Assembly: GCA_963977135.1 (NCBI GenBank)
Contig: CAXBNN010000009.1
Location: forward strand, 6,771-70,770
DNA: 64,000 nt
From: an uncultured Flavobacteriales bacterium
GTDB lineage: Bacteria; Bacteroidota; Bacteroidia; Flavobacteriales_D; Crocinitomicaceae
Direction: 5' to 3'
The position numbers were made by a program, and so were the translations under genes. The notes beneath the pieces are model-generated. The model saw only the letters and a program-made list of their open reading frames with translations, searched no databases and had not been told where the DNA came from. Positions 11,616-63,483 of this stretch are shown here, one piece after another (the first letter of the stretch is position 1; every line of letters begins with the position of its first letter).

Positions 11616-11624
11616 TGGTACAAT

Positions 11625-16246: not shown

Positions 16247-16270
16247 ATTCTGAGACTTTAGATATTAGAC

Positions 16271-16309
16271 AAAAGACTTAATCCAAATATGGGTTAAGTC
16301 TTTTTTTTT
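16271..16309 (+). terminator. rho-independent terminator after frr
   Basis: 10-bp stem gacttaatcc / gggttaagtc (one G-U pair), 6-nt loop, followed by a T9 tract (16301-16309). Confidence 0.8.
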
Positions 16310-16317
16310 CCTAATCT

Positions 16318-16352
16318 GACTAAAGACTAAAGACTAAAGACTAAAGACTAAA
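16318..16352. repeat. heptanucleotide tandem repeat (gactaaa) x5, perfect
   Basis: Counted directly from the sequence. Followed by aaaatct x2. Lies between the convergent 3' ends of frr and the OmpA-family gene. Confidence 0.9.
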
Positions 16353-16368
16353 GTCCAAAATCTAAAAT

Positions 16369-27732: not shown

Positions 27733-27747
27733 TGCTTTCTAAGCTAT

Positions 27748-29636: not shown

Positions 29637-29638
29637 AT

Positions 29639-30259: not shown

Positions 30260-30313
30260 GTTGCGAAGATAAGGAAAAGGGTTGGTGACTTTCAATTGAA
30301 TTCTTCAAAACTC

Positions 30314-32907: not shown

Positions 32908-32962
32908 TTGTTTTTTACTTCTGCTAAATATAGCAACGAATTATAGAACCGTTTTTACTAAT

Positions 32963-34063: not shown

Positions 34064-34068
34064 AATTT

Positions 34069-37114: not shown

Positions 37115-37129
37115 TTAACAAAGCGGATT

Positions 37130-38353
37130 TTAGTCCTTATTTTTTCCGTTTTTGTCAATAGAAAATATAAAATCTTTTTGAACGATTGAGGTAATATTGG
37201 CCGTTTGAATTTCGTAAATATTTCCTGAATCGACTTCAATTGTTATGTCTTCTTCAGTGTAATCTTGTTCGATTCCATTACCTGACAACCATACACCAAC
37301 TTTGTATACGCCAGCCGACAACCCAAGTTTATCCAATTCAAATTGATATGTATTGCTGGCTTGATATTCTATTGTTTCATTATAACAATAAGTGCTTAGC
37401 TGAAAAACCGTATTATTTAATTCATCAAAAACGAATACGGATAAGTCAATTTTTCCATTAAATTCTTCAGTTTTTCCAAGGCTGATATTTACTTTAAAAT
37501 CAGACGACGGCAAATAATTGATGTGATTAAATTCAATCGATTCGACATAAATCTGTTTTATTCCTCGTTTTCTTGAGCTATAATCGGAAGTGTCAAATTT
37601 CAATTTTTGTTGAGAAGCAATAGAATTATATCGGGAAATTGCGTCTTGAATTGATCCTTCAAACGTAACTTGTCCCTTGTCAATCAAAATTGCTCGGGTG
37701 CATAAATTTTTAACTGCAGCCATGTTGTGACTAACGAAGAGTACTGTTCTGCCAGCTTTGGCAACTTCGTCCATTTTCCCAAGGCATTTCTTTTGAAATT
37801 CAGCATCGCCAACGGCTAAGACTTCATCGATGATTAATATTTCTGGTTCAAGATGTGCTGCCACAGCAAATGCTAGTCTTACATACATTCCTGAAGAGTA
37901 ATGCTTTACAGCCGTGTCAATAAATTTTTCAATTCCAGAAAACACTACGATTTCGTCAAATTTTAATTTCACTTCTTTGCGACTCATTCCTAGAATAGTC
38001 CCGTTCAGAAATATATTTTCTCGGCCTGTTAATTCGGGATGAAAACCGGTCCCTACTTCAAGTAAAGATGCAACCCTGCCGCGAATTTCTATTTGTCCTT
38101 GACTTGGTTTGGTAATTTGAGATACTAGTTTTAATAAGGTGCTTTTACCTGCTCCGTTTTTCCCAATTATACCAACAACTTCACCTTTTTTCACCTCAAA
38201 ATTTACATTTTTCAATGCCCAAAAGTCTTCGCCCTTATTTGCAGCACTTTTAAAAACATTTGCCAGGGAAGAGCGAAAAGTTCCATCCTTCTGCTTACCG
38301 ATGGTATATTTTTTACCAAGATTAGAAACCTTAAGTGCTAGATTATTGTCCAT
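37130..38353 (-). CDS. polysaccharide ABC exporter ATP-binding protein (Wzt/TagH-like) with C-terminal beta-sandwich extension
   Basis: 407 aa. Walker A GKNGAGKST, signature SSGMYVRLAFA, Walker B ILIIDEVLAVGD. About 150 extra C-terminal residues. Confidence 0.85.
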   Translation of the reverse strand: MDNNLALKVSNLGKKYTIGKQKDGTFRSSLANVFKSAANKGEDFWALKNVNFEVKKGEVVGIIGKNGAGKSTLLKLVSQITKPSQGQIEIRGRVASLLEVGTGFHPELTGRENIFLNGTILGMSRKEVKLKFDEIVVFSGIEKFIDTAVKHYSSGMYVRLAFAVAAHLEPEILIIDEVLAVGDAEFQKKCLGKMDEVAKAGRTVLFVSHNMAAVKNLCTRAILIDKGQVTFEGSIQDAISRYNSIASQQKLKFDTSDYSSRKRGIKQIYVESIEFNHINYLPSSDFKVNISLGKTEEFNGKIDLSVFVFDELNNTVFQLSTYCYNETIEYQASNTYQFELDKLGLSAGVYKVGVWLSGNGIEQDYTEEDITIEVDSGNIYEIQTANITSIVQKDFIFSIDKNGKNKD

Positions 38354-38356
38354 TTC

Positions 38357-39181
38357 TTATACGTAGTCAGCCATTTCAGACTCTACTTTTTTAAAATACA
38401 TTAACCCTGAAATCAATAGCAGAATCACCATTGCGAATGAAATAAAAATCATAGAACTTGGAGGTGTTCCTCCAAAAATACTCCATCTAAAACCTTGAAT
38501 AACGCCAGCCATGGGATTTAAATAATATATTGATTCCGCCCATTTCGGTAAATGTTGTGATACTAATTCTATCGGATAAGCTACAGGAGTTAAATATAAA
38601 CCCACTTGAACCATAAATGGAACAACATGCTGAAAATCCCTGAACCTTACTGTTAATGCACTCAGCCAGATTCCGACAGCCAAAGCTGAAATCATACCAA
38701 TAATAACAAATATTGGTGCAAAAAAGATGGTTTTTGCAGGTGCCACTTGATAGTAAATCATTAAAACGATCAATATTAATATAGTAATTCCAAAATCTAT
38801 CAATCCAACTAAGGCCTTAGACAGTGGAATAATGAGACGAGGAAAGTAGATTTTTTTCACCATATCCTGACTTTGTATTATCGAGCTTCCGGAGTTGGTC
38901 ATTACATAAGAAAAATAAGACCACATACTAAGTCCACAAACAGTAAAAACTATATGGGGCACTTCAGTTTCAACACCTGCAAACTTGTTAAATACTAATG
39001 TTAAGATTAATAAAGTAACGATGGGTTGAAGCAAAGCCCAAAGAAATCCAATTGTGGTTTGAGCATATCGAACACGAAAGTCACGCCAAGATAAGGTTAA
39101 AAATAAATCCTTATAGCGGTATAATTCCTTGAAATCGGGGAAAATACTTGTGTTTCCAGCTTGAATTATTTTTATGCTCAT
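38357..39181 (-). CDS. ABC-2 type polysaccharide exporter permease (Wzm-like)
   Basis: 274 aa, 6 TM segments. LSWRDFRVRYAQTTIGFLWALLQP. Confidence 0.85.
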   Translation of the reverse strand: MSIKIIQAGNTSIFPDFKELYRYKDLFLTLSWRDFRVRYAQTTIGFLWALLQPIVTLLILTLVFNKFAGVETEVPHIVFTVCGLSMWSYFSYVMTNSGSSIIQSQDMVKKIYFPRLIIPLSKALVGLIDFGITILILIVLMIYYQVAPAKTIFFAPIFVIIGMISALAVGIWLSALTVRFRDFQHVVPFMVQVGLYLTPVAYPIELVSQHLPKWAESIYYLNPMAGVIQGFRWSIFGGTPPSSMIFISFAMVILLLISGLMYFKKVESEMADYV

Positions 39182-39196
39182 GTTTCTCTATTTCAA

Positions 39197-40309
39197 CTAG
39201 TTGAATTTATTCTTGAGTTTCAAAAACGGTTTCTCGAGAATATGATAACTAAGATAGGCAAATATAAGGGTTGCAGTTAAAGCAATGGCTGTTTCTAAAA
39301 AGATAACTTGCCACAGTTGATTGTTCAAACCAAGTAATTTAGTGCTTTGGATGGCGATTAGTATTCCGATAAAATGAAGGCAATACAATCCATAAGTGTA
39401 CTTACCTAATCGCGTTAAAACCTTATTATTCTTCATTTTAAAAAAAGAATTCTCCGAAAAATTCTGCTCCAAGATAATAAATGCGATTACTGAAGCGAGA
39501 AACATTCTTTCCAGAATCATCATCACAAAGCCTGATCCAACAATGTATCCTCTATAAAAAATGAAAAGCAAAAAGATCAAATAGACTAAACCAATCAATG
39601 GTTTCTTGGTTTTTCTAATGCGCTCAAGGAATACAGGATATTGAATAATTAACCAAGCCGAAAATCCACCAACTACAAGATCAACCATACAGCTAAAAGA
39701 ATGTACTTCAAGTGAAATGGGCGCTGGGTTTTTAGACCTGAACCATAAGCTGATTAGAATTAAAATGATGAATAGATAATTATACCTTTTAAAAGGAACT
39801 ACAAGTAATAAAATAGGCCAAATCATATAAAATTGCTCCTCAATTGAAACGCTCCAAAGCACCCCTAAAATTGATGCATCAGGCAAGCCATTGTTGATAA
39901 GGTCGAAATTACTTGTAAAGGTTAAATAGTAAATAATATTTGCGGTTTCCATTGAGGTTTGACCAAGCATTGATTTAAAAAGTGGAAACAACAAAAAACC
40001 AAAGAGAACGCAGAAAAAATACAAAGGCCAAATTCTCAAAACTCGTCTTGCCCAAAACTTTGGTAGATTTATTTTGTTGCTAGATTTTTTTTCTAAAATG
40101 ATGAAATAACTTATTAAAAAACCACTTAATACAAAAAAGAAATTGACTCCAATATTACCATTTATAAATAACTTTTTGGTGATAAATTGGTAAATCGGGG
40201 AATCGATAATCAATTGATTTTCAGTATAAAAACTGTGATAGAAAAAGACCATCAAAAATGAAACGGTTCGCCATCCATCCAAATTATCGAAATATATTTT
40301 ATTTTTCAT
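39197..40309 (-). CDS. acyltransferase family 3, integral membrane (second copy)
   Basis: 370 aa. LDGWRTVSFLMVF...RRVLRIWPLYF...WSVSIEEQFYMIWPI. Paralogue of 32963..34063. Confidence 0.8.
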   Translation of the reverse strand: MKNKIYFDNLDGWRTVSFLMVFFYHSFYTENQLIIDSPIYQFITKKLFINGNIGVNFFFVLSGFLISYFIILEKKSSNKINLPKFWARRVLRIWPLYFFCVLFGFLLFPLFKSMLGQTSMETANIIYYLTFTSNFDLINNGLPDASILGVLWSVSIEEQFYMIWPILLLVVPFKRYNYLFIILILISLWFRSKNPAPISLEVHSFSCMVDLVVGGFSAWLIIQYPVFLERIRKTKKPLIGLVYLIFLLFIFYRGYIVGSGFVMMILERMFLASVIAFIILEQNFSENSFFKMKNNKVLTRLGKYTYGLYCLHFIGILIAIQSTKLLGLNNQLWQVIFLETAIALTATLIFAYLSYHILEKPFLKLKNKFN

Positions 40310-41633
40310 GGACGGTTGCTAACTGCTCATTTTCAGTAGGTTTTATGGTCAATAGGATAATGAAAAAAGGCAGAATAATTGTTTTAAATCTAACTAAAAC
40401 TCCAAAGAGTCCAGAGGAGAATCCAACTGAGAATCCCATGATAATAACAAAAAACAAACTGAAAGTTAAAATGGGTGTTTTATTAATTAATTGAACACGG
40501 CTCCAAAAACCGGTTGTAAAAAACTTAAAACTTAAAAAAAGTAAGAATAAGTTTTCTATACCGTTCATTAAAAGCACTGGACTTAACGATTCCCATGGGA
40601 ATGGTCGGTATAAAGCTGCAGTAAGTGCAGCTGGAATTGTTCGAATGATTCCTAATGTAGAGTAATCTGTTATATTAAGGTCATAACGATTTGTACCATA
40701 CGTGGTGTTTGCATTAAAATCTTTTTGAATAATAATAATTTCATCAATTATATTGTCCAATGTTTTAAATTGAATAAATAGAAAAATCACGCCAATTCCC
40801 AGTCCATAAAAGAAAATTCTAATGGTTGTTTTTTTAAGATTATTCGTTTTGGCCCTATTAGAAAACCAAATACTAATTGCAGCAAAAAAACTTGATAGCA
40901 AGGCAATTAAAATATAAAATCGCGATTGAATTATAAAAAATAAAATAAGAACAACCCACAAGATTTGAGACAATTTATTAGAGCCTTTTTTTGTAAATAA
41001 TAGAATAATTTGGCGGACTAATAAACAAACTGCAATGTATACAAAAGTGTCTTTTGAAACTCCTGAACACCAGAATGCCACTGATGGTAAAAATAAAACA
41101 CCTACAGCAAGCCATTTTTCATCATTAATACCAAGAGATTTGATAGCCAAGAAAAATTTCCACGTTACCAATGAGGTTATGTACCCTAAAACTATCGTTG
41201 CTGCCAGATAACTTTGGAATGTGATTAAACTAATCGGAACAAGAATTTTACAGATAAAATAACTTTCAGGCTCTTTATAAATCCAACTTGGCGGGTACCC
41301 AGTTGCTGAATTGAAATTTTTAGTAATTGTATATATGTCTGGAGTTTCCCATATTTCCGAAAGAAATGCTGCCGGAGAATCAGAAAATAAATTATGAAGC
41401 GCAACTCCACCATCCCAATATGCAGTCGTATCACCTCCTCCATAGTACAAAAGGTAAAATATACCGAAAAATAAAGCCATTCCTACGTGAAAATATACCT
41501 GTGGCTGGAAAAGTCGATTGCTTTCATCCAGTTTCATCCTAGATCTTTGAAGGCCTGTTAAAAGCACGACAATTATCAACCAAAGAAAGGCAGAAATGAT
41601 ATTTGTCGCATTGAAATATTCTACAATTTTCAT
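40299..41633 (-). CDS. polytopic membrane protein (about 11 TM), function unknown (polymerase/ligase/GT-C-like?)
   Basis: 444 aa, very hydrophobic. First gene of the polysaccharide operon. No motif that I can name. Confidence 0.4.
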   Translation of the reverse strand: MKIVEYFNATNIISAFLWLIIVVLLTGLQRSRMKLDESNRLFQPQVYFHVGMALFFGIFYLLYYGGGDTTAYWDGGVALHNLFSDSPAAFLSEIWETPDIYTITKNFNSATGYPPSWIYKEPESYFICKILVPISLITFQSYLAATIVLGYITSLVTWKFFLAIKSLGINDEKWLAVGVLFLPSVAFWCSGVSKDTFVYIAVCLLVRQIILLFTKKGSNKLSQILWVVLILFFIIQSRFYILIALLSSFFAAISIWFSNRAKTNNLKKTTIRIFFYGLGIGVIFLFIQFKTLDNIIDEIIIIQKDFNANTTYGTNRYDLNITDYSTLGIIRTIPAALTAALYRPFPWESLSPVLLMNGIENLFLLFLSFKFFTTGFWSRVQLINKTPILTFSLFFVIIMGFSVGFSSGLFGVLVRFKTIILPFFIILLTIKPTENEQLATVHEK

Positions 41634-45397: not shown

Positions 45398-47492
<2,095 letters not shown>

Positions 47493-47529
47493 TCTTCAAA
47501 TATATACTCTAGGGAAAACCTTGCTGGGC

Positions 47530-47612
47530 TGTCACTTTTCCTTACGTCGGGATCAACCGATTCAAGTTCAAAGGGTATTTCTCAGACTATTTTGAAGTCA
47601 CCCCTAAAGTCA
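47530..47612 (-). promoter_or_regulatory. TPP (THI-box) riboswitch controlling thiS-thiC-thiE-like-thiD
   Basis: The minus strand reads aggggtgacttcaaaatagtctgagaaataccctttgaacttgaatcggttgatcccgacgtaaggaa. It contains the GGGGUG...CUGAGA.AUACCC...CUUGAAUCGG..GAU.CCCGACGUAAGGA elements of the THI consensus. Confidence 0.75.
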
Positions 47613-47751
47613 TACAAAATTACGAATTCTGACTGGAATTATTTGTTTTTCGAAGCGATATTTGAATTTCCCCCTTTGGAGGGCGATAAAGGGGAGGATA
47701 CAAGGGCTTATAAAATGAAAGAATTGAGCCGGAAATTGAATAATCCTCCCC

Positions 47752-47779
47752 CTCGGTCCCCCTCCAAAGGGGGACCGAG
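47752..47779. repeat. GC-rich perfect hairpin (12-bp stem, 4-nt loop) ctcggtccccct-ccaa-agggggaccgag
   Basis: Paired base by base. A related ccccttt...aaagggg hairpin lies at 47671-47694, and ggggaggat/atcctcccc pair between 47691-47699 and 47742-47750. Confidence 0.8.
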
Positions 47780-47827
47780 TAAATCTCAATTCATATGGGA
47801 ATTTTTTGTAATTTTACCACGTAAACT

Positions 47828-47905
47828 TTTAGGGGTGTCTGACAAACTTGTCATTCTGAGAAATACCCTCATCACCTGATGTAGATAATGCTGCCGAAGG
47901 AAAAA
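47828..47905 (+). promoter_or_regulatory. TPP (THI-box) riboswitch controlling thiE-thiG-thiH
   Basis: aggggtgtctgacaaacttgtcattctgagaaataccctcatcacctgatgtagataatgctgccgaaggaa is a close match to the THI consensus (GGGGUG, CUGAGA, ACCC, ACCUGAU, AUAAUGC, GAAGGA). Confidence 0.85.
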
Positions 47906-47955
47906 AGTGAGGCGCTTGGCGTTCCTGAAAGTTTTGCACGTAAAAAAACAGGAAA

Positions 47956-52140: not shown

Positions 52141-52148
52141 TATCTTTG
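52141..52148 (+). promoter_or_regulatory. candidate -7 box TAtcTTTG upstream of the TBDR-like operon
   Basis: Motif match, 115 bp before ATG 52264. Confidence 0.3.
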
Positions 52149-52263: not shown

Positions 52264-55200
52264 ATGCTACGTAATTTTACTTTGTTGCTGTTAATCTTCT
52301 TATCCACAGCTACTTTTGGTTTCGGTCAGGTAGGTTTGGGTACCTTGAAGGGGTCAGTTATCGATGCCGACACGAAACAACCAATACCTTTCTGTAAGGT
52401 ATTAATCATGCAAAACGGAAGCGTTAAGGGTGGAGCGAATACAGATTTTGATGGAAAGTTTCAAATTAATTCCATCGGTGTTGGTTCTTATGATGTCGAA
52501 GTTAGAAATGAGACAGAAGGATATCAACCTACGGTTTTAACTGGGGTTATAGTTTCTTCTGATCAGATTACTTTCTTGGATAAAATGACAATCGCAAAAG
52601 CGAAAAGTGTCCAGGAAATTGAAGAGGTAAAAGTAGTTGCATATAGAGTTCCTCTTATTAATAAAGATGGTGGTTCTTCAGGTGCAACAGTTACTCGTGA
52701 GGATATTGCTCGATTACCAGTTCGTTCTGCTGCTGGAGTTGCATCAACAGTTGGTGGTGTAAATGCTCAAGAAGGAGGAGGAATTAGTGTAAGAGGTTCT
52801 CGTGAAGATGGAACATTCTACTATATAGATGGTATTAAAGTTCGTGGTTCTTCAAACTTACCGAAATCAGCGATTGAGGAAGTAACAGTAATTACTGGTG
52901 GTTTACCTGCAAATTATGGTGATGCAACTGGTGGTATTATCTCTGTTACAACTAGAGGCCCAAGTGCACAGTATTTCGGTAGTGCGGAAGTCGTATCATC
53001 GGGCTTTTATTTTAAAGGTAAAGATGAGAACGGTTACGACGGAAAAGTTTTTGGTTTAGATAAATATGCATACAACCTTATGGAAGGTATGTTCTCGGGA
53101 CCACTTTGGATGATTAAAGATTCTACAGGTGCAAAAGTAAAACCTCGTTTAGGATTTTTATTATCTGCTAACTACACACGTGAATTAGATCCGAGACCAC
53201 TTGCAAATGGTGGGCAATGGAGAGTTAAGAAAGAAGTTCGTGATTCTTTAATTGCAAATCCTTTACGTCCAAGTGGATTGGGTTCAGGCACATTTAGTAA
53301 TGCACTTTATTTACGTCAAAATGATTTTGAGCAAACGCCATGGAGAATGAATGCTCGACAAGGGGTTATTTCTGCGCAAGGTAAATTGGATGTAAACACA
53401 GGGCCAAGCATCAACCTTACATTTGGTGGGTCTATGAATATAAATAATCGAACTCTAGCTGATAGAGGAAATTCACTTCTGAATTTTACAAACTTCGGCG
53501 TTGCTAAATCTTTTGATTGGAGGGTCTTCGGTCGTTTAACGCAACGTTTTTCTAACGACAGAGAAGGTGGAGCATCTAAAATTGGAAGCGCATTTTATTC
53601 TTTAATGATAGATTATTCTAAGCAAAAAGGTGAATTTTACGATCGAAACCATCAATTTAATTTATTCAATTATGGGCACGTTGGAACATATACCACAACT
53701 AGAAGACCATCTTATGGGTATGACGATGTTGCAAAAGTATATCGTCACAATGGATTTAGAGATTTGTTAGTTGATTTTGTTCCTTCAGAAACGAATGCGA
53801 CTTTAGCTGCAATAACTACTCAATACTATTCTATATACGAAGGTCAAGCTGCAGGTAACTACGAAAACTTGTTCCAAATCCAACAAGGTAACGCATTAAG
53901 AAATGGAGATTTACCGCAAAGTGTTTATGACATTTGGTCAAATATCGGTGCACCTTATAACGCTTTTGGTAAAAATGAAAATGATCAGTTTAGAATAACT
54001 GGTTCAGGTTCTGCTAACATCGGTGATCACTCTTTATCTATTGGTTTTGAGTATGAGCAGAGATGGGATCGAGGCTGGGGAAGCGGAGATGTTGCAATCA
54101 CAAGTATTTGGACAAATGCTCGTCAATTAGCTAATTCACACATTCAAGAATTAGATTTATCTTCAGGTACCCAAAGTGATTCTGGTTCAATTAAGAAAAT
54201 CACCTATAACCGTTTGAATACTGGATATGCGTATAATTCTGGTACTGGAGATTATGGAGGACAAGGTGGTAAACAAGATATCAACGGAAATACTATTTTT
54301 GATGCACAATCGTTCTTCGATTATAATTTACGTCAAAAACTTGGTTACGATGTAGCAGGTACAGATTTCATTGATATTGATCAATACGATCCGAATACCT
54401 TTACGTTAGACATGTTTACTCCAGATGAGTTATTTAACTCAGGAAATTCATTTGTTAGCTATTATGGATATGACCATACTGGTAAAAAAGTAAGAGGTAA
54501 AACAGACGTGAACAGTTACTTCGAGAAATTTGACGAAAATGGAAATTATGAGCGATTCATTGGAGCTTTTCAACCAATATATGTTGCGGGTTATTTAATG
54601 GATAAATTCTCTTTTAATGACTTGGTATTCAATGTCGGTGTTCGTGTCGATGTATTTAACGCAAACCAACCTGTATTGAAAGATCCATATTTGTTGTACA
54701 ATTCTAGAACTGTTAAGGAAGCAAGAGAGTTGGCAAGTACAGACCCTAATACATATGACTGGGTTGTAATTCCAACTTCTATGGGAGATGATTATACAGT
54801 TTATGTAAATGATTTCAAAAACCCAACAGCTATAAATGGATTTAGAAAAGACGGTGTGTTTTATGATGCACAAGGAACGCAAGTTTCAGATCCTAAATTA
54901 ATTGACGGACCAACAGGAATTCAACCATGGCGTTTAGACCCATTCCAAAATGCACCGAATGCTAGTGCTTTTAAAGATTATAAGCCACAGATTAATGTGA
55001 TGCCACGTGTTGCGTTTTCTTTCCCAGTATCAGATGAAGCTTCTTTCTTTGCACACTATGATATCTTAACAAAACGTCCAACAAGTGCAGGAAGATTTGA
55101 TCCATATGAGTATCAGTTTTTAGCTACTAGAGGAAGAACAATCAATAATCCAAATTTGCAACCTGAAAAAACGATTGATTACGAAATTGGATTCCAACAA

Positions 55201-56052
55201 GTGTTGTCTAAAACTTCTTCTTTGAAAATTTCAGCATTCTACCGTGAACAGAGAAATAACGTACAATTGCAAAATGTTAGTGGGGCTTATCCTGTGACAT
55301 ATAATACATTTGGTAACCGTGACTTTGGTACGGTTAAGGGTTTGACAGTAGCTTATGATTTAAGAAGAACCGGAAACGTTAGAATAACTGCTAACTACAC
55401 ATTGCAATTTGCGGATGGTACTGGTTCTGATGTAACTTCATCAGCAGCCCTTATCCAAGCAGGATTACCTAATTTACGTGTTATTCAACCATACAACTTT
55501 GATCAGAGACATGCATTTGCTGTGACAATTGATTATAGATATGGTTCAGGAGCGAATTACAACGGGCCGGTAATTAAAGATTTCAATATTTTTGAAAATA
55601 CAGGTTTGAACATTTTCTCAAATATTTACTCAGGTTCGCCATATTCTGCTCAAAGTAATATTACAAATGTTGCTCAAGGAAATACGGTTACACCAAGTTT
55701 AACTGGAACTCAAAATGGTTCTAGATTACCTTGGTCTTACCGTTTAGATATGCAGTTAGATAGAACTTTTGATTTAGAAATTAAAAGAGGTGAAAATAAG
55801 AAGAAACCAGTTTTCTTGAATGTTTATGTTCGTGCAACGAATTTATTGAACCAATTCAATAGAATTAACGTTTATCGCGCTACAGGTAACTGGGATGATG
55901 ATGGATATCTTGCGGCAGCGTCAAGTCAGTCGTCAATTCAGAATCAGACAGATGAGCAATCGTTTAGAGATTATTATACGATGAGTGTTCAGAATGCATT
56001 TAACATATCTGTTCCAAGAACGATAAGATTAGGGGTGAAATTTGATTTTTAA
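52264..56052 (+). CDS. very large TonB-dependent-receptor-like outer-membrane protein (CarboxypepD_reg domain + plug + oversized barrel)
   Basis: 1262 aa. Signal peptide. GTLKGSVIDADTKQPIPFCKVLI...TDFDGKFQI (carboxypeptidase-regulatory-like). Plug ISVRGSREDGTFYYIDGIKVRG...TVITGGLPANYGDATGGIISVTTR. Ends ...RTIRLGVKFDF (terminal aromatic residue). Confidence 0.8.
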   Translation: MLRNFTLLLLIFLSTATFGFGQVGLGTLKGSVIDADTKQPIPFCKVLIMQNGSVKGGANTDFDGKFQINSIGVGSYDVEVRNETEGYQPTVLTGVIVSSDQITFLDKMTIAKAKSVQEIEEVKVVAYRVPLINKDGGSSGATVTREDIARLPVRSAAGVASTVGGVNAQEGGGISVRGSREDGTFYYIDGIKVRGSSNLPKSAIEEVTVITGGLPANYGDATGGIISVTTRGPSAQYFGSAEVVSSGFYFKGKDENGYDGKVFGLDKYAYNLMEGMFSGPLWMIKDSTGAKVKPRLGFLLSANYTRELDPRPLANGGQWRVKKEVRDSLIANPLRPSGLGSGTFSNALYLRQNDFEQTPWRMNARQGVISAQGKLDVNTGPSINLTFGGSMNINNRTLADRGNSLLNFTNFGVAKSFDWRVFGRLTQRFSNDREGGASKIGSAFYSLMIDYSKQKGEFYDRNHQFNLFNYGHVGTYTTTRRPSYGYDDVAKVYRHNGFRDLLVDFVPSETNATLAAITTQYYSIYEGQAAGNYENLFQIQQGNALRNGDLPQSVYDIWSNIGAPYNAFGKNENDQFRITGSGSANIGDHSLSIGFEYEQRWDRGWGSGDVAITSIWTNARQLANSHIQELDLSSGTQSDSGSIKKITYNRLNTGYAYNSGTGDYGGQGGKQDINGNTIFDAQSFFDYNLRQKLGYDVAGTDFIDIDQYDPNTFTLDMFTPDELFNSGNSFVSYYGYDHTGKKVRGKTDVNSYFEKFDENGNYERFIGAFQPIYVAGYLMDKFSFNDLVFNVGVRVDVFNANQPVLKDPYLLYNSRTVKEARELASTDPNTYDWVVIPTSMGDDYTVYVNDFKNPTAINGFRKDGVFYDAQGTQVSDPKLIDGPTGIQPWRLDPFQNAPNASAFKDYKPQINVMPRVAFSFPVSDEASFFAHYDILTKRPTSAGRFDPYEYQFLATRGRTINNPNLQPEKTIDYEIGFQQVLSKTSSLKISAFYREQRNNVQLQNVSGAYPVTYNTFGNRDFGTVKGLTVAYDLRRTGNVRITANYTLQFADGTGSDVTSSAALIQAGLPNLRVIQPYNFDQRHAFAVTIDYRYGSGANYNGPVIKDFNIFENTGLNIFSNIYSGSPYSAQSNITNVAQGNTVTPSLTGTQNGSRLPWSYRLDMQLDRTFDLEIKRGENKKKPVFLNVYVRATNLLNQFNRINVYRATGNWDDDGYLAAASSQSSIQNQTDEQSFRDYYTMSVQNAFNISVPRTIRLGVKFDF

Positions 56053-56072
56053 AAAATTAATATAATAGAGTT

Positions 56073-59000
56073 ATGAAAAAAGTATCAGTCCGTTTTTTAC
56101 TGGTCACAATCGCAATGTTTTCTGCGCAATTAGTTTTTGCGAAGGAAGATGTCGGAGGAAAATCACAAAATGGTTCTCCAAATAAGCCAGCTTTAATTAC
56201 GTCTAAGGCCGCAGGTTGTGATCCGTCCAATACGGTATTAACAATGGAATTCAACGATGTTCGAGCTTTGCTACAGCAAGGTGGGCGAATGTTTGAAAGA
56301 CCTGGCACGCAGGTTGCTGCTTATGAGGTTCCTAAAAATAGTGGTCTATATGCCATATTCGCTGGTTCTTTATGGATGGGTGGAGTTGATGCAAATGGTC
56401 AATTGAAATTAGCAGCAGTTCGTTTTAGATCTGTAGGTAATGACTTTTGGGCAGGACCGTTAACGGTTAATAGTAACAGTGGAAACTATGATCCGTCAGT
56501 TCCTGGAGCAGATGATGTTGTCAGAGATTTTGGTCCTGCTGATATCAACAACAGTGAATGTAAAGCTTATGATAAATTCTTCACCATAAGAAAAGGAGAG
56601 GTTATCAATTTTGTTACATGGTGGAATTATACAAATGGATTTTCAACAGTAGCTGTTGATGATATTAACGCAGAAGTCCTTAATAGAATTATAAATTGGC
56701 CAGCGCACGGTGATGTAGGTTTAGGACAAGATTATTTCTTGGCTCCTTTTTATGATAACACGATTAAGAATGGTGCTAATAACGCATACAATCCGATTGA
56801 GGATGGAGATTATCCTTGGTATGATGATATCTTGGGTAAAGATGACATAGAATGTGGAATTGATAGAAGAATTTCATTGTTCGGAGATGAAACACATTGG
56901 TGGGTCTTCAATGATAAAGGAAATATTCACACAGAAACAGGTGGTGATCCAATAGGAATGGAAATTCGTGCTCAGGCATTCGGTTTTGCGACTAATGACG
57001 AGGTAAATAGAATGACATTCTACAACTATGAATTGATAAATAGAGGTGTTCAAACATTGTTTACTACATATTTCTCTCAGTGGTTGGATCCAGATTTAGG
57101 AAATGCACAAGATGATTACGTTGGTTGTGATGTATCTAGAGGTCTTGGTTATTGCTACAATGGTGATAATAATGACCAAAGTGCAAGTTCTAATATTGGA
57201 TATGGTTTAAATCCACCAGCAATAGGTATTGACTTCTTTGAAGGACCATACTTGGATGCTGATGGTATTGATAATCCTGGGCCGATTTTTGACTCAATAA
57301 ACAATGTTTATATTCCGCCAGCAATCCAAAACGCACTTGACAGTAATGGTATTGTTTACCGTGGAATTGGAACAGGATATTCAGATGGTGTTATCGATAA
57401 CGAGCGATTTGGAATGAGACGATTCACCTATTTCACGAATGGTGCCTCGTTCCCATACTCTGACCCTTCATCTGCAGCACAATATTACAATTTCATGCAA
57501 GGTTCATGGGCTAATGGATCAGAGATGGTTTATGGTGGTACTGGTGCTATCGGAACGCCTGGAGCCACTAATATCCCTTCAGATTATATGTTCCCTGATG
57601 ACTCTGACCCACTAAATTGGGCTACAGCAGGTACAGATCCAGGATTTGATTGGAGTGAGGCTTCAACGGATGGAGCAGGTAACTCTACACAACCAGGCGA
57701 TAGACGTTTCGTTCAATCTGCTGGTCCGTTTACATTACGTCCCGGTGCTGTCAACAACATTACTGTTGGGATAGCTTACGGAAGAGGAAATGCTGGTGAT
57801 TTGTTTAGTTCAGTGAGAGCATTAAAACGTGCAGATACGAAAGCACAAGCTTTATTCGATGCTTGTTTCAAAATTTTAGATCCACCGAATGCGCCAAGAT
57901 TGATAATTCAAGAACTTGAAAATGAATTGATTTTAACATTGGATAATCCTGTTGGTTCAAATAATTACCGTGAGGAGTACGAAGAGATTGATGAGATTAA
58001 TATTGTTGATCCAGGTGTAGACAGATATTACCGTTTTGAAGGATATCAAATTTATCAGTTGGTAAGCGCTTCTGCTTCGATTGCTGATATCGCCGATCAA
58101 ACAAAAGCAAGAATTGTTGGACAATGTGACCTTAGAAACTTCGAAAAGAATTCTGCTGGAATAGATAACCCTGAAAAACCGATTAAAGATTTAATAAATT
58201 TCGAGTTTGACGAAGAGCTTGGATTTGATATTCCGACTTTAAAAGTGAGTGGTTCAAATACTGGAATTAAGCATTCATTTAAAATTACGGAAGATTTATT
58301 TGCTCAAGGAACTAGAACTTTGGTAAACCATAAAACATATTATTATGTGGCTGTTTCTTATGGTTTCAATAATTACTCAGATTACGATCCAAATGATGCA
58401 AGCAAAGTAAATGGTCAAAAGATCAAGTATATCGCTTCACGATTAGGTTATGATCAAACAGCAATTAAACCAGTTGAAGCAATACCACATAATCCTGCTC
58501 CAGAAGCGGGTGGTACATATCAGTTTGCTGAATATGGAATAACTCCGAAAATTACTCGTATTGATGGCCATGGAAATGGTGGAAGGGTATTGGAGCTGAC
58601 AGCAGAATCTGAAAAACAAATTCTTAGTAACGGTTTCATGGCGAAACCTGAGTACCAGAAAGGTAAAGGACCTATTAATATTAAAGTCGTAGATCCTTTG
58701 AATGTTGCTGACGGTTATTACGAATGTATATTTAGAGATTACAACACAAACGGTAGTTTACTTGGGAATGCAGCTGATACTGCTCGATGGACAATAAATC
58801 GCTATGTCGATGGAAATTTGGTAGAATCCGTTAAATCTGATACAATGATTTCAATTGATAATGAACAATTGATTCCTCAATGGGGAGTTTCTGTTCAAAT
58901 TTATCAGAACAAGCATTTTATTGAGGTAGGAAACGGAACGCTTACCCAAGAAACGACAGACATTTTAGAATCTACACTTGAGTTTACTGATAGTTCTAAA

Positions 59001-60347
59001 CCTTGGTTGAGAGGTGTTATTGATGCGGATGATTATACGCCAAATAACTGGATTAGATCAGGTAGCTTTACAGCCGATCCTGCCACAACATATCCATTCC
59101 CGCCAGTTGAACTTGGCTCGGAACGTTATGAAAGTGGTCAGTGTTATAGAGATGAGATAGGAAAAGATCCAAACAAACGTTGGACAAAAGTGCTTAATGG
59201 TACTATGGCACCTCATTCATTAGTAGGTTACCAATGTGACTTTATGCCATTGGCTTACTACAAAAGCTCTCAAAGTTACCCAACTGCACCAGAATCAACA
59301 CCTGGAGCGGCAAGAAATAACGCAGCTTTGGCTTTCTCTCCGAGTATAGACATTGTCATAACAAAAGATCAATCACTTTGGACAAAATGTCCAGTAATTG
59401 AGTTGGGTAGAGATCCAGCTTTGAATGTTGGTAATGCAAAACCAGGTGGATTAAGAAAGCAAGCTGGTTTAAATAAAAATGGTATAGCCGACGGATCAAA
59501 TCCAGATGGTATGAGTTGGTTCCCAGGTTACGCTATAGATATTGAAACTGGTGCGCGTTTATTCATGGCTTTTGGTGAGAATTCTTTCTTAGGTCAAGAT
59601 GGTGGAAATGATATGAAATGGGAACCAAGTGCGAACCTTTATGGTCCTACTGGAGCTGCTTTGTTAGGAGGTCAGCATCCTATCTACGTTTTCTCTCACA
59701 AACAAAAAGAAATAAATGGGGCTAGTAGTCTTTACGATATGGGTTATTACAATGAAGGCAGTACTGAACTGTTCGACTTGATGACCAATATGGTTGACAA
59801 CAACAGTAATACTGCTAAAACTAACTTCTACAATAGTTTGACTTGGATTGGTTACCCGCTATTAGCGCCAAATCGTTCTATGTTTGAAACTACTGTGAGA
59901 ATCAGAGTTAGAGTAAACAAAGAATATAAAACGTTTAATGCTACAGGAGAAAATAATGGTAAGCCGAAGTATTCATGGTCTATGGATGAGTTGACACCTC
60001 GTAAGTCAGATAGAAATGCTTTAGCGGATATTTTGAACACAATTAGAGTTGTCCCTAATCCATATTATGCTTATTCTGAATATGAGCGTAATAGATTGGA
60101 TACTCGAGTGAAAATCACCAATCTACCTGAAGTATGTAATGTGAATATTTATACTACAAACGGTAAACTGGTGCGTTCTTATAAAAAGGATAGTCCAATA
60201 ACAAGTATAGATTGGGATTTAAATAATTTTAAGTCCATACCTGTATCTAGTGGTGTGTACTTAGTACATGTTGAAGTTCCAGGCATTGGAGAAAGAGTTC
60301 TTAAATTCTTCTGTGGAGTTCGTCAGGTTGACCTTCAAGGTATATAA
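56073..60347 (+). CDS. 1424-aa secreted protein with T9SS-type C-terminal sorting domain, function unknown
   Basis: Signal peptide MKKVSVRFLLVTIAMFSAQLVFA. The last ~100 aa, VVPNPYYAYSEYE..RVKITNLPEVCNVNIYTTNGKLVRSY...WDLNNFKSIPVSSGVYLVHVEV...KFF, fit the Por_Secre_tail / FlgD-Ig-like pattern. No catalytic motif recognised. Confidence 0.7.
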   Translation: MKKVSVRFLLVTIAMFSAQLVFAKEDVGGKSQNGSPNKPALITSKAAGCDPSNTVLTMEFNDVRALLQQGGRMFERPGTQVAAYEVPKNSGLYAIFAGSLWMGGVDANGQLKLAAVRFRSVGNDFWAGPLTVNSNSGNYDPSVPGADDVVRDFGPADINNSECKAYDKFFTIRKGEVINFVTWWNYTNGFSTVAVDDINAEVLNRIINWPAHGDVGLGQDYFLAPFYDNTIKNGANNAYNPIEDGDYPWYDDILGKDDIECGIDRRISLFGDETHWWVFNDKGNIHTETGGDPIGMEIRAQAFGFATNDEVNRMTFYNYELINRGVQTLFTTYFSQWLDPDLGNAQDDYVGCDVSRGLGYCYNGDNNDQSASSNIGYGLNPPAIGIDFFEGPYLDADGIDNPGPIFDSINNVYIPPAIQNALDSNGIVYRGIGTGYSDGVIDNERFGMRRFTYFTNGASFPYSDPSSAAQYYNFMQGSWANGSEMVYGGTGAIGTPGATNIPSDYMFPDDSDPLNWATAGTDPGFDWSEASTDGAGNSTQPGDRRFVQSAGPFTLRPGAVNNITVGIAYGRGNAGDLFSSVRALKRADTKAQALFDACFKILDPPNAPRLIIQELENELILTLDNPVGSNNYREEYEEIDEINIVDPGVDRYYRFEGYQIYQLVSASASIADIADQTKARIVGQCDLRNFEKNSAGIDNPEKPIKDLINFEFDEELGFDIPTLKVSGSNTGIKHSFKITEDLFAQGTRTLVNHKTYYYVAVSYGFNNYSDYDPNDASKVNGQKIKYIASRLGYDQTAIKPVEAIPHNPAPEAGGTYQFAEYGITPKITRIDGHGNGGRVLELTAESEKQILSNGFMAKPEYQKGKGPINIKVVDPLNVADGYYECIFRDYNTNGSLLGNAADTARWTINRYVDGNLVESVKSDTMISIDNEQLIPQWGVSVQIYQNKHFIEVGNGTLTQETTDILESTLEFTDSSKPWLRGVIDADDYTPNNWIRSGSFTADPATTYPFPPVELGSERYESGQCYRDEIGKDPNKRWTKVLNGTMAPHSLVGYQCDFMPLAYYKSSQSYPTAPESTPGAARNNAALAFSPSIDIVITKDQSLWTKCPVIELGRDPALNVGNAKPGGLRKQAGLNKNGIADGSNPDGMSWFPGYAIDIETGARLFMAFGENSFLGQDGGNDMKWEPSANLYGPTGAALLGGQHPIYVFSHKQKEINGASSLYDMGYYNEGSTELFDLMTNMVDNNSNTAKTNFYNSLTWIGYPLLAPNRSMFETTVRIRVRVNKEYKTFNATGENNGKPKYSWSMDELTPRKSDRNALADILNTIRVVPNPYYAYSEYERNRLDTRVKITNLPEVCNVNIYTTNGKLVRSYKKDSPITSIDWDLNNFKSIPVSSGVYLVHVEVPGIGERVLKFFCGVRQVDLQGI

Positions 60348-60353
60348 TACAAA

Positions 60354-61427
60354 GTGCAAAAAATGAGAAATTCAATGAGATCAATCAAAAATAAGATGTT
60401 TATTGGTGCACTGCTTTGCAGTTTTGCAGCAACAGCTGGAAATGAGGATCGAGTAGGTTCGTCAGGGGCATCTCAACTTTTAGTAAATCCATGGGCACGT
60501 AGCTCCGGTTTAGGTGATGCGAACATTGCATCGGCTGTAGGTTTAGAGGCAAGCTATATTAACATCGCAGGTTTGGCTTTTACAGACAAAACGCAATTAA
60601 AATTTAACACTGGAAATTGGATGGGTAACGCAGGTATCAGTATGATGTCTGCCGGAATTGCTCAAAGAGTTTCGGAACAAGGTGTTTTAACTTTAAGTGT
60701 GCAGTCTTTGAACTATGGTGACATAGATATTACGACTGTGAACCTTCCAGAAGGTGGTATTGGAACGTTTTCGCCGAGAACGAACATTATTAATGTTGGG
60801 TATGCCAAAACATTTTCAAGTTCAATCCATGCCGGAATTAACTTTAAACTTATTTCCGAAAGCATTTCAAATGTGAAAGGTACTGGAATTGCAATCGATG
60901 CAGGTATTAAATACATTACAGGAGAGCAGGACCAAATGAAGTTTGGTATTACCTTGAAAAATGTTGGACCAACGCTAAGATATAAAGGTGATGGTTTTAC
61001 GAATCAAGCGACTTACTCTTCAACTGGTAACGTAACTTCTTTGGATCAAAGAGTGCAAGCATACGAGTTACCATCGCTACTTGGAATTGGTGCATCATAT
61101 GATTTCATTGTTGATGAGAGAAACAAGATTGTTGCAAATCTAGGATATACCGCAAATTCATTCTTTTATGATCAATTTAGATTAGGAGTGGATTATGGTA
61201 TGACAACAGAAAAATTTGCTTTTAACTTAAGAGGTGGATTCGTTTACGAGAAAAATCTATTCTCTGTTGAAAACAGATCTAATGCTATGCTAGGTCCAAC
61301 TGGAGGTTTTTCAATAGATGCTTTAGTTGGTAAAAACAAGACGGCTCTTGGTGCAGAATATAGCGCGAGGTTTGCTGGGGTTTTTGGTGTAATTCACACA
61401 TTTGGTATTACGATAAGTTTGAAATAA
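60354..61427 (+). CDS. PorV/PorQ-like outer-membrane beta-barrel
   Basis: 357 aa (GTG start; ATG alternatives at 60363 and 60375). After the signal peptide, GSSGASQLLVNPWARSSGLGDANIASAVGLEASYINIAGLAF parallels the PorV N-terminal motif (..FL.i..dARa.GMGd.gvA....s..wNPA.laf). Alternating beta-strand pattern, ends in ...GITISLK. Confidence 0.6.
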   Translation: MQKMRNSMRSIKNKMFIGALLCSFAATAGNEDRVGSSGASQLLVNPWARSSGLGDANIASAVGLEASYINIAGLAFTDKTQLKFNTGNWMGNAGISMMSAGIAQRVSEQGVLTLSVQSLNYGDIDITTVNLPEGGIGTFSPRTNIINVGYAKTFSSSIHAGINFKLISESISNVKGTGIAIDAGIKYITGEQDQMKFGITLKNVGPTLRYKGDGFTNQATYSSTGNVTSLDQRVQAYELPSLLGIGASYDFIVDERNKIVANLGYTANSFFYDQFRLGVDYGMTTEKFAFNLRGGFVYEKNLFSVENRSNAMLGPTGGFSIDALVGKNKTALGAEYSARFAGVFGVIHTFGITISLK

Positions 61428-61452
61428 GATAAAGCTTAATTATATTTGCTAG

Positions 61453-61490
61453 ACAAGAGGGTCCAATTTGGGCTCTCTTGTTTTCATTTT
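61453..61490 (+). terminator. rho-independent terminator after the PorV-like gene (also lies in the greA leader)
   Basis: acaagagggtcc / gggctctcttgt forms a 12-bp stem (2 G-U pairs) with a 5-nt loop, then ttttcattttt. Confidence 0.7.
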
Positions 61491-61514
61491 TATTAAATTG
61501 ATAAAAGGAATAAA

Positions 61515-61991
61515 ATGTCACAAATATCATATTATACAGAGGCCGGTTTAAAGAAATTGAAAGATGAACTTCATGACATGAAAACTGTTCAACGACCTTC
61601 TATTAGCGAGCAAATAGGCGAAGCTAGAGATAAGGGTGATTTGTCGGAGAACGCTGAGTACGATGCGGCAAAAGAAGCGCAAGGAATTCTCGAGATGAAG
61701 ATTGCAAAATTGGAGGCTATACTTGCAAACGCGAGAATTGTTGATGAAACCAATATGGATGATTCAAAAGTTTTCATTCTTTCAACCGTGAAAATCAAGA
61801 ATCTTGCCAACAAAGCTGAAATGAGTTACACTTTGGTTGCAGAAAATGAAGCGGATTTGAAAGTTAAAAAGATATCTATTGATTCGCCAATTGGTAAGGG
61901 CCTTTTAGGAAAAAAGAAAGGTGATATCGCGAATGTTGAAACTCCAAATGGAATTATAAAGTTCGAAATAATTGATATCTCAAGAGGATGA
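61515..61991 (+). CDS. greA: transcription elongation factor GreA
   Basis: 158 aa. Y.T..G..KL..EL......RP.I...I..AR..GDLSENAEYDAAKE.Q is the canonical GreA coiled-coil. C-terminal domain SPIGKGLLGKKKGD. Confidence 0.95.
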   Translation: MSQISYYTEAGLKKLKDELHDMKTVQRPSISEQIGEARDKGDLSENAEYDAAKEAQGILEMKIAKLEAILANARIVDETNMDDSKVFILSTVKIKNLANKAEMSYTLVAENEADLKVKKISIDSPIGKGLLGKKKGDIANVETPNGIIKFEIIDISRG

Positions 61992-62377
61992 GTTCAATTT
62001 TTAAAAAAATAATTGACGGAGAAATCCCTGCGCATAAAGTAGCAGAGTCAGATAAACATTTGGCTTTTTTAGATATTCAGCCTTTGAGAAAAGGTCATGT
62101 TTTGGTAATTCCAAAAAAGGAGACTGATAATATCTTTGATATCGAGGATAATGAACTTGGTGAATTAATGATTTTTGCGAAAACCGTTGCAAAAAAAATA
62201 GCCAAAGAGTTTCCATGTAGAAAAGTTGGCGTGGCGGTTGTAGGACTTGAGGTTCCGCATGCGCATGTGCATCTAATTCCGATTAATCAAGTATCGGATA
62301 TGGATTTTAAGCAGGCTAAATTGAACTTATCGAACGAGGAATTGGCAAGTATCGCCGAGCGCTTGAGTAAGGCATAG
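61988..62377 (+). CDS. HIT-family (HinT-like) nucleotide hydrolase
   Basis: 129 aa. IFKKIIDGEIPA...LAFLDIQPLRKGHVLVIPK...VPHAHVHLIP (histidine triad). Confidence 0.9.
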   Translation: MSSIFKKIIDGEIPAHKVAESDKHLAFLDIQPLRKGHVLVIPKKETDNIFDIEDNELGELMIFAKTVAKKIAKEFPCRKVGVAVVGLEVPHAHVHLIPINQVSDMDFKQAKLNLSNEELASIAERLSKA

Positions 62378-62400: not shown

Positions 62401-63483
62401 ATGAAAAGTATATTTATGAGAAGATTGTTTAAGCTTATCCTTGCGTTTTTGTTTGGGAGTCCAGCTTTTTCACAAAAAACGGCCCAAGAAGATTTAAATA
62501 TTTTGTTTGTTGGTAATAGCTATACTCATATGAATGAGATGCCTTTTATTTTTGACAAAATAGCGAAATCCAAAGGGAAATCAGTCCATGTGGAAATGAA
62601 TACTAGAAGTGGATCATCTTTTCAAATTCATACGACAAGACCCGATTTGTTCCAAACGATTAAAAGCAGAAAATGGGATTTTATAGTTTTACAAGGCTAT
62701 AGCCGAGAACTATCCTATGAGCCCGAATATTTGGATACAGCGACAATGCCATATATCCAACAAATTCTAGATAGCGTTTACCTAAATGATTCTTGTACCA
62801 ACGTTCTATTATATATGACTTGGGGATATAAAGAAGGATTTCTTGAGAGAGAAGAAACGGATACATATGAAAAAATGGCAGATAAAATTGCTGCAGGTTA
62901 CCAATATTTGAGCGATTCATTGAATTTACCAATCGTTCCAGTTGGAATGGTTTGGAAAAATGTCAGAAAAAAATATCCTGAAATAGAACTATATGATGCT
63001 GATAAGGCACACCCAAGTAAAAACGGCTCTTATATTGCTGCGAGCAGTTTTTACACAGCAATATTTAATGAATCCCCAGAAGGAGCTATAACCTCGACTA
63101 TAAGCAATGAGATAGCACCAAAAATTCAAAAAATGGCAGCTACTTATGTTCTAGAAAACTATAAACGGTATAAACTTGAAGTGAACACCTATAGTATTAA
63201 AGATATGAGAACCGTAGATGGTAAATACATGATGTATGGAAAATCCAATTTTCCGGAATCGACATCAATTCACTGGGATTTTGGTGATGGCAAAACATCT
63301 ACTGATAAAAACCCTACGCATCGTTATCTAAATCCAGGAGTGTACAAGATTGTGCTTACTGTTGAGGATGTATGTGGAACTCGTGTTATCGAGAGAACCG
63401 CTGAGTTCAAGGAGCCTAAGAAGCCAATCGCAAAACCAACTCCTAAGCCAAAAAAAGGAAATACACCTAAAAAGAAAATTTAA
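62401..63483 (+). CDS. secreted SGNH/DUF4886-like hydrolase-fold protein with PKD domain and Lys/Pro-rich tail
   Basis: 360 aa. Signal peptide, ILFVGNSYTH near the N-terminus, PKD signature HWDFGDGKTSTDKNPTHRYLNPGVYKIVLTVED, tail KKPIAKPTPKPKKGNTPKKKI. Confidence 0.55.
   Translation: MKSIFMRRLFKLILAFLFGSPAFSQKTAQEDLNILFVGNSYTHMNEMPFIFDKIAKSKGKSVHVEMNTRSGSSFQIHTTRPDLFQTIKSRKWDFIVLQGYSRELSYEPEYLDTATMPYIQQILDSVYLNDSCTNVLLYMTWGYKEGFLEREETDTYEKMADKIAAGYQYLSDSLNLPIVPVGMVWKNVRKKYPEIELYDADKAHPSKNGSYIAASSFYTAIFNESPEGAITSTISNEIAPKIQKMAATYVLENYKRYKLEVNTYSIKDMRTVDGKYMMYGKSNFPESTSIHWDFGDGKTSTDKNPTHRYLNPGVYKIVLTVEDVCGTRVIERTAEFKEPKKPIAKPTPKPKKGNTPKKKI

Follow-up and report, generated by a model that had tools for sequence, protein, structure and literature searches.

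What would a TonB-dependent transporter have to do with a very large secreted protein and with a relative of the barrels which carry such proteins to the cell surface? The question is raised by three adjacent genes, here called gene 1, gene 2 and gene 3 (names used for their products as well), in a stretch of 64,000 nt from an uncultured Flavobacteriales bacterium of the Crocinitomicaceae (assembly GCA_963977135.1, contig CAXBNN010000009.1, positions 6,771 to 70,770 of the forward strand), which in its whole length is referred to as the window. In current type IX secretion system (T9SS) models, PorV is the one general shuttle for type A cargo, to which the special pair PorQ-PorZ is added. Our analysis lends good support to a co-transcribed and co-inherited set, consisting of a predicted TonB-dependent transporter, a cargo of T9SS type whose C-terminal domain (CTD) resembles that of PorZ, and a private barrel of the PorV/PorQ family. 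In the explanation which we prefer, and to which as a whole we assign a probability of roughly 45%, gene 3 would collect and anchor gene 2, and gene 2 would serve gene 1 as a putative importer. The features on which the argument draws are the following (aa, amino acids; ORF, open reading frame; HMM, hidden Markov model):

52141..52148, plus strand: candidate Bacteroidota -7 box TATCTTTG, fitting TAnnTTTG
52264..56052, plus strand: gene 1, ATG start, 1262 aa (ORF list)
52618..52644, plus strand: TonB-box-like motif IEEVKVVAY of gene 1 (aa 119-127), between N-terminal extension and plug
56073..60347, plus strand: gene 2, ATG start, 1424 aa (ORF list)
60045..60344, plus strand: PorZ-like CTD of T9SS type at the end of gene 2 (about aa 1325-1424), from HMM, family profile and Foldseek
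60354..61427, plus strand: gene 3, GTG start, 357 aa (ORF list), likelier start ATG 60363
61451..61493, plus strand: intrinsic terminator, 15-bp stem (61451-61483) with 6 GC pairs, 3-nt loop and T-rich tail

The operon and its three products

A preliminary description, made from the letters of the window, had spoken of a tight operon, and this is borne out by the ORF coordinates: the genes share one strand, with 20 nt between gene 1 and gene 2 and 6 nt between gene 2 and gene 3, if the GTG start of the latter is taken. The alternative start of gene 3, ATG 60363, lies 15 nt after gene 2 and yields 354 aa; since the orthologues of gene 3 begin about 14 nt past gene 2, it is the likelier one. The unit is closed 24 nt past the gene 3 stop by the terminator listed above, which was graded strong, as had been claimed, and no other terminator-like site was found within the gene 1-gene 2-gene 3 unit. 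Upstream, 212 nt separate gene 1 from a divergent phosphopantetheinyl-transferase gene. The -7 box proposed there does exist as a match, TATCTTTG being the sole plus-strand TAnnTTTG across this intergenic region, but the window contains 104 copies of the motif where about 90 would be expected, i.e. it is not rarer than chance, and the box is therefore weak promoter evidence and no proof alone.

Gene 3 had been called PorV-like, and the family models agree: it scores 129.9 bits with NF033709 (cut-off 90) and 36.3 bits with PF19572 (cut-off 27), and no FadL or porin match appeared in the Pfam and NCBIfam scans. With the equivalog models of the named members it stays below the cut-offs, reaching 70.6 bits for PorV (NF033710, cut-off 250; best E-value of the orthologues 7.7e-23), 79.2 bits for PorQ (NF033711, cut-off 220; only aa 37-209 covered) and 35 bits for 'PorV2' (cut-off 325). 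The orthologues tested behave alike, 20 of 20 matching the PorV/PorQ family and missing the equivalogs, and a sequence search of the PDB with gene 3 returned PorV of Flavobacterium johnsoniae (6h3i_F, E 5.5e-6) as the sole relative. These profile comparisons show a predicted outer-membrane barrel of the PorV/PorQ family, which forms a clade of its own and is neither canonical PorV nor canonical PorQ.

Gene 2 has a signal peptide (MKK...LVFA/KE) and encodes a Sec-exported protein of 1424 aa. Its T9SS CTD, which had been described as clear, is less so by curated models, scoring 14.5 bits with PF18962 (cut-off 27) and 21.4 bits with TIGR04183 (cut-off 23), both for type A domains. The assignment itself has support on other grounds. 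PF18962 is matched at E<=0.05 by 9 of 35 gene 2 relatives (best 2e-12), the profile of the gene 2 family matches the PorZ CTD 5m11, and in a Foldseek search with the gene 2 model of higher confidence (predicted local distance difference test, pLDDT, 86.5) the same PorZ CTD ranks first (E 9.5e-6), followed by the translocon-bound NucA CTD 8glk_D (probability 1.0, template-modelling (TM) score 0.67). The PorZ model NF052228 gives 35.4 bits on gene 2 (equivalog cut-off 260), aligned only over aa 1311-1399. As modelled, the last ~100 residues of gene 2 show a T9SS-type beta-sandwich closest to the CTD of PorZ.

This domain is also the most conserved segment of gene 2: in 35 diverse relatives its majority fraction is 0.64, while the other segments lie at 0.39-0.61, and across 42 triads it has a mean pairwise distance of 0.36 against 0.50 for the gene 2 body. 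Past the last canonical strand of the CTD a conserved tail follows, ...K(F/W)FGxxR(Q/P)xDLxx(F/I), given for the CTD as ...KFFxGxRQVDLQGI. Likeness to PorZ together with such conservation argues for a CTD that is retained and not cleaved, and for a probable working part rather than a disposable tag. The extreme conservation was also considered as a trait specific to the triad; this was rejected, as the stand-alone copies of gene 2 show the same conservation. In seven of 11 stand-alone paralogues (among the loci concerned are L024, L027, L033, L040, L044, L053 and L071) two motifs of the CTD are altered, DWDL having become DWxL and K[FW]FG having become K[AS]FI, and these two positions may be determinants of which barrel binds the CTD.

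Gene 1 begins with a signal peptide and ends in ...VKFDF. The CarboxypepD_reg domain and the TonB plug seen in it earlier, as well as the missing SusD partner, were confirmed: PF13620 reaches 41 bits over aa 27-103 (cut-off 32.3) and Plug PF07715 reaches 36.5 bits over aa 139-225 (cut-off 23.9), the profile of the gene 1 orthologues matches in the PDB Cir and PfeA by their plugs and a SusC homologue by its N-terminal extension, and the neighbours of gene 1 are gene 2, the phosphopantetheinyl-transferase gene and a PcrB-family gene. IEEVKVVAY probably functions as the TonB box, its position and the pattern (E/T)x(V/F)xV(V/I)xY being kept across 19 gene 1 orthologues. The barrel region is evidently divergent in sequence: gene 1 itself has no PF00593 match, and this barrel family (TonB_dep_Rec_b-barrel) is matched by five of the 19 orthologues (best 1e-11) and by the orthologue of locus L085. 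Oar is a TonB-dependent transporter of Myxococcus xanthus required for the secretion of PopC. Gene 1 has the PF13620 extension followed by a plug which defines the Oar subclass, as an architectural class only, and this architecture is the commonest among TonB-dependent transporters of Bacteroidetes (PMC6434023). The SusC/RagA model TIGR04056 gave no NCBIfam match at E<=0.1, and no SusD-like gene is adjacent; SusC identity was ruled out on curated HMM thresholds. Because CarboxypepD_reg, TonB-box-like motif and Plug occur together, and SusC/RagA and SusD do not, gene 1 is by its predicted domains a TonB-dependent transporter of Oar-type architecture, not of the SusC/RagA type.

The gene 2 family is large and bears no telling name. 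More than 5800 clusters at 90% identity were counted in a word-limited search, and an exhaustive search among 50%-identity representatives gave 6970 relatives with E<=1e-3, of which 1676 have E<=1e-30; where a name is attached, it is 'hypothetical protein' or 'T9SS type A sorting domain-containing protein' and nothing more. Gene 2 scores above threshold with no Pfam family, and the family as a whole is without a Pfam model. The protein had been characterised as rich in W, N, G and D, which is right for glycine, asparagine and aspartate (9.6, 8.1 and 7.5%), but tryptophan makes up just 1.6%. In the PDB, a sequence search with gene 2 alone found no match, and one with the family profile found the PorZ CTD only.

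AlphaFold (AF2) models were built from a 55-sequence alignment in two overlapping parts, aa 600-1424 (pLDDT 86.5, predicted TM score, pTM, 0.85) and aa 25-1200 (pLDDT 81, pTM 0.71). Against the PDB, Foldseek matched the C-terminal half only through its CTD, and the body gave weak beta-sandwich matches to the N-domains of glycoside hydrolase (GH) families, GH15-like, GH94, GH116 and GH149 (E 1e-4 to 1e-2, TM <=0.2); against a viral structure library, only FN3-like repeats were matched. As these matches are all weak or FN3-like, the body lacks a relative of solved structure and cannot be assigned an activity, and the earlier statement that gene 2 has no visible catalytic motif stands, no catalytic domain being recognised by HMM or fold searches. 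The resemblance to GH and phosphorylase sandwiches, weak as it is and situated in the N-terminal 550 residues, forms together with Ca-binding-like DxDxDG loops the only, faint hint to a possible substrate.

Three identities of gene 2 were tried and rejected. A GH-type enzyme would need the (alpha/alpha)6 catalytic barrel of the GH15-like, GH94, GH116 and GH149 enzymes, which gene 2 lacks. For a GDSL/SGNH or Ser-Asp-His site, the spacing within the conserved E/D/S/D/H cluster at aa 1169-1202 (AFGE-S..., GGxH) is far too short; the cluster may be a metal site. An S-layer protein, suggested by a weak match to 7ptp (probability 0.44), was dismissed, the family being far too conserved.

Distribution, gene order and co-divergence

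A scan with one genome per species confirmed at least 597 gene 2 loci, the family being present in no fewer than 597 species genomes; of these loci the best 80 were retained, 60 of them with evaluable flanks. Among these 60, the order gene 1-gene 2-gene 3 is intact in 46, gene 2 stands alone in 10 and partial arrangements are found in four. Triads reach down to about 40% gene 2 identity. The search for the triad elsewhere, which had been recommended, thus had a positive outcome, and the supposition of a cargo-associated PorV paralogue gained from it: gene 3, distinct from PorV and PorQ, is genetically locked to gene 2 and a TonB-type barrel in 46 of the 60 loci. Carriers of the triad are Crocinitomix catalasitica ATCC 23190, Flavobacteriales, metagenome-assembled genomes (MAGs) of Bacteroidales and Lentimicrobiaceae, and a MAG labelled 'Chlorobi'.

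For gene 2 as such, the named carriers are Crocinitomicaceae, other Flavobacteriales, Vicingaceae, Salinivirgaceae, other Bacteroidales, Luteibaculum oceani and one 'Chlorobi bacterium' MAG; marine and freshwater Flavobacteriales have it in abundance, and two carriers, Crocinitomix catalasitica ATCC 23190 and Luteibaculum oceani, are in culture. No solid evidence emerged for a spread to other phyla of the Fibrobacteres-Chlorobi-Bacteroidetes group, as had been surmised, all named sources being Bacteroidota with the exception of the MAG that bears the label 'Chlorobi bacterium'.

Directly after the triad, greA and then a HIT gene follow in 53-54 of the 56 loci with gene 3 (among L004-L085), even at about 40% gene 2 identity. 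In the window the two genes occupy 61515-62377 and are parted from the triad by the terminator. For an outer-membrane operon and the two housekeeping genes greA and HIT, a gene order kept so deeply is unusual. Conserved in this way, the block is old and vertically inherited and no mobile island, and the triad is best explained as a vertically inherited three-gene outer-membrane module of the class Bacteroidia.

Departures from the standard arrangement are instructive. Locus L082 carries a second gene 2 (13402-17427) in tandem after gene 3, and several genomes have more than one copy of gene 2; the stand-alone paralogues, which have kept the CTD, are surrounded by unrelated genes. On contig PACT01000037 the module is split: in one place (L059 and L066 lie on this contig) an RND efflux operon comes after gene 1 and gene 2, and in another gene 2, gene 3, greA and HIT come after a UvrD-like helicase gene. 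Since both halves keep a gene 2 of their own, gene 2 would be the common partner.

The pairwise divergences of gene 1, gene 2 and gene 3 correlate with r 0.91-0.95, compared with 0.66-0.75 against greA and 0.22-0.34 against HIT, and partial correlations among the three, given greA and HIT, amount to 0.86-0.91. The residual correlation is 0.25 between CTD and gene 3 versus 0.08 between CTD and gene 1. Such mirror-tree co-divergence is suggestive only.

A proposed mechanism and its competitors

The mechanism that we prefer would proceed in four steps. Gene 2 would cross the outer membrane through the T9SS translocon (step 1). Gene 3, and not the general shuttle PorV, would collect it at the translocon and, by binding its uncleaved CTD, keep it at the cell surface, as PorQ does with PorZ (step 2). 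Anchored beside or over gene 1, gene 2 would then act as an extracellular capture or processing subunit in the place of a SusD-type lipoprotein (step 3), and gene 1 would import the product with TonB energy (step 4). The precedent for the second step is the PorZ CTD, which is retained and bound by PorQ, the PorQ-PorZ complex forming without PorV or PorU; PorQ has been proposed to collect PorZ directly at the Sov translocon, and PorZ and PorU are the cargoes known to keep their CTD (PMC10947112; PMC10202324). A recent study of F. johnsoniae gives the type A CTDs as all recognised by PorV, and private shuttles as known for type B cargo only (PMC12618676).

The first two steps are much better supported than the last two. 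That gene 3 collects and anchors gene 2 by its uncleaved CTD finds fair support; that the anchored gene 2 serves gene 1 in TonB-driven import is a more tentative suggestion. The three proteins may form a single physical machine, as operon structure, synteny and correlated divergence would suggest. The most far-reaching version, an ancient and hitherto unrecognised composite outer-membrane machine of Bacteroidia, in which a PorV/PorQ barrel of a third class would permanently join a TonB-energised barrel to a protein of new fold delivered by the T9SS, we regard as doubtful.

Several observations weigh against the proposal. Neither gene 1 nor gene 3 need be adjacent for gene 2 to exist, as 10 of the 60 loci and L084 show, and 4 of the 11 stand-alone paralogues keep the CTD motifs of the triad type. 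The CTD of the window protein remains just under both curated type A thresholds, and gene 2 has no catalytic or binding domain recognisable in Pfam, PDB sequence or Foldseek searches. Correlated divergence is confounded by shared ancestry, greA and HIT being short and noisy controls, and the CTD-gene 3 residual is only 0.25. Near the triad there are no regulator, SusD or enzyme genes; the neighbours are housekeeping genes without a pointer to nutrient uptake.

The competitor which survives best, although we hold it to be somewhat unlikely, has gene 3 as a transient, cargo-specific shuttle: PorU would cleave the CTD, gene 2 would be linked to anionic lipopolysaccharide (A-LPS) or released, and gene 1 would be an ordinary transporter that merely shares the operon. 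The relatives of gene 2 annotated with a type A sorting domain, and the nine of 35 that match PF18962, fit this explanation, type A cargo being normally cleaved (PMC10202324), and so do the stand-alone gene 2 copies without gene 1 or gene 3. A signal that is discarded, however, is unlikely to be the best-conserved part of a 1400-aa protein or to bear a conserved extra tail; moreover, the nearest CTD is that of PorZ, which is retained, and gene 1 is linked to gene 2 as tightly as gene 3 is.

A different function is proposed by a second competitor, in our judgement clearly unlikely, according to which the module is a housekeeping machine serving the envelope or export and not a nutrient importer, with gene 2 and gene 3 as the surface part, handling for example lipid, lipopolysaccharide or another surface polymer. 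The order gene 1-gene 2-gene 3-greA-HIT, kept across orders in 53-54 of 56 gene 3 loci without regulators or catabolic genes, would suit such a role, as would the very high conservation (about 70% for gene 1 and about 60% for gene 2 at family level), the Oar domain architecture of gene 1 (PMC6434023) and the handling of A-LPS by PorZ, the relative of the CTD (PMC10202324). Against this, the Oar-type architecture is simply the commonest type of TonB-dependent transporter in Bacteroidetes (PMC6434023), the module is not known from model Bacteroidota and may not be universal, and the linkage to greA and HIT may be mere inherited gene order, because here a terminator parts these genes from the triad.

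That gene 2 and gene 3 are simply the lineage's own PorZ and PorQ, i.e. the general T9SS attachment complex, is highly improbable and their identity with PorZ and PorQ was ruled out on curated HMM thresholds: PorQ is indeed the best equivalog for gene 3 and PorZ the best CTD match for gene 2, but the models reach only 79 bits against 220 and 35 against 260 (the latter on the CTD only), PorZ is a 776-aa double beta-propeller whereas the gene 2 models have no propeller match and gene 2 is twice as long, and several genomes hold at least two gene 2 copies.

Remaining features of the window and known systems compared

The genes flanking the triad are housekeeping genes, thiamine genes, the PcrB-family gene and the phosphopantetheinyl-transferase gene upstream, and greA, the HIT gene and a PKD protein downstream; T9SS core genes were not found within the 64-kb window. 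The PKD/DUF4886 protein (360 aa; 62401-63483, plus strand), in which no CTD of T9SS type was detected, follows HIT. In 21 loci a member of its BLAST cluster is encoded close to the triad; these loci are all from genomes of Flavobacteriales type, and the distant Bacteroidales triads are not among them. Among the thiamine genes, two divergent thiamine pyrophosphate (TPP) riboswitches were found at 47522-47615 (minus strand) and 47821-47919 (plus strand), with 69.9 and 57.6 bits (gathering score 54.3); the pair controls thiC on the minus strand and thiE-thiG-thiH on the plus strand. A 150-aa ORF with TTG start (47427-47879) overlaps both riboswitches and is probably not a gene.

Further away, a long polysaccharide biosynthesis locus extends over about 23547-41633 on the minus strand; ten of its ORFs were scanned and encode, among other products, several GT4 glycosyltransferases, two Acyl_transf_3 proteins, an asparagine synthase and an ABC-transporter ATPase, and the locus may represent a pathway for O-antigen or capsule of the ABC-dependent kind. 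At 6565-13820 (minus strand) and 8579-9532 (plus strand), three B12-binding radical SAM proteins (503, 450 and 473 aa) are clustered with a GT4 glycosyltransferase. Two uncharacterised envelope genes unrelated to the triad, for a DUF4403 protein (18001-19401, minus strand) and an OmpA-family protein (16369-17583, minus strand), are adjacent to each other. A tyrosine integrase gene (3853-4992, minus strand) adjoins the stretch of lowest GC content in the window (0.306 in 1-2000), and positions 1-4992 may be the edge of a mobile element.

Full-text literature searches found no paper describing such a module or PorV-like paralogues together with TonB receptors. The guess that the module may be undescribed is consistent with this and with the want of a Pfam model for the gene 2 family. 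Each part is of a kind already known; neither the searchable literature nor Pfam, NCBIfam or the PDB yielded a description of the combination, of the third PorV/PorQ clade or of the gene 2 fold.

If the preferred mechanism is true, a third widespread PorV/PorQ clade would be tied to one cargo, and private barrels for retained CTDs would be a general way of building surface complexes. Coupling of such a cargo-barrel pair to a transporter without SusD would be a new way to provide a transporter with an extracellular subunit. In the far-reaching version that we regard as doubtful, retained CTDs of the PorZ type would serve generally for anchoring instead of being peculiar to the attachment complex, and a TonB-dependent transporter would for the first time be seen to owe a subunit to the T9SS. 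The gene 2 family deserves attention in its own right, being composed of very large proteins without Pfam model, with a confidently predicted structure that has no solved relative, and cultured carriers allow testing.

Among the known systems closest to the triad is PorQ-PorZ of the T9SS attachment complex in Porphyromonas gingivalis: a barrel of the PorV/PorQ family is paired with one T9SS cargo, the CTD of gene 2 is nearest to that of PorZ in sequence and fold, and its strong conservation fits a CTD retained as an anchor, as reported for PorZ. Beyond the CTD, however, gene 2 is unrelated to PorZ, having no beta-propellers and 1424 instead of 776 aa; gene 3 stays below the PorQ equivalog, no link to PorU or A-LPS was seen here, and the triad includes a TonB-dependent transporter, which PorQ-PorZ does not. 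Oar shares the domain order of gene 1, i.e. PF13620 extension, TonB box, plug and long barrel, a likeness in shared domains, and it has no T9SS or PorV-like partner (PMC6434023).

SprF-SprB and the PorP/SprF-like shuttles of F. johnsoniae resemble the triad in that a cargo gene adjoins its own barrel gene, which fixes secretion and final location (PMC12618676); there, PorP/SprF barrels (TIGR03519) are combined with type B CTDs, whereas the triad would combine a PorV/PorQ barrel with a type A or PorZ-like CTD. In the BamG-BamH pair of the Bacteroidota BAM complex, a FadL/PorV-like barrel likewise holds a large extracellular protein by its loops (PMC12578637), but BamH is a lipoprotein and not T9SS cargo, and BamG docks on BamA, while gene 3 scores with the PorV/PorQ family. 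With SusC/SusD, finally, the triad has in common that the gene for a big TonB-dependent barrel with a CarboxypepD_reg-type extension adjoins that for a surface-exposed partner. It differs in having no TIGR04056 match and no SusD lipoprotein, regulator or carbohydrate-active enzyme genes, and in its partner, which would reach the surface by way of the T9SS and be held there by a barrel rather than by a lipid anchor.

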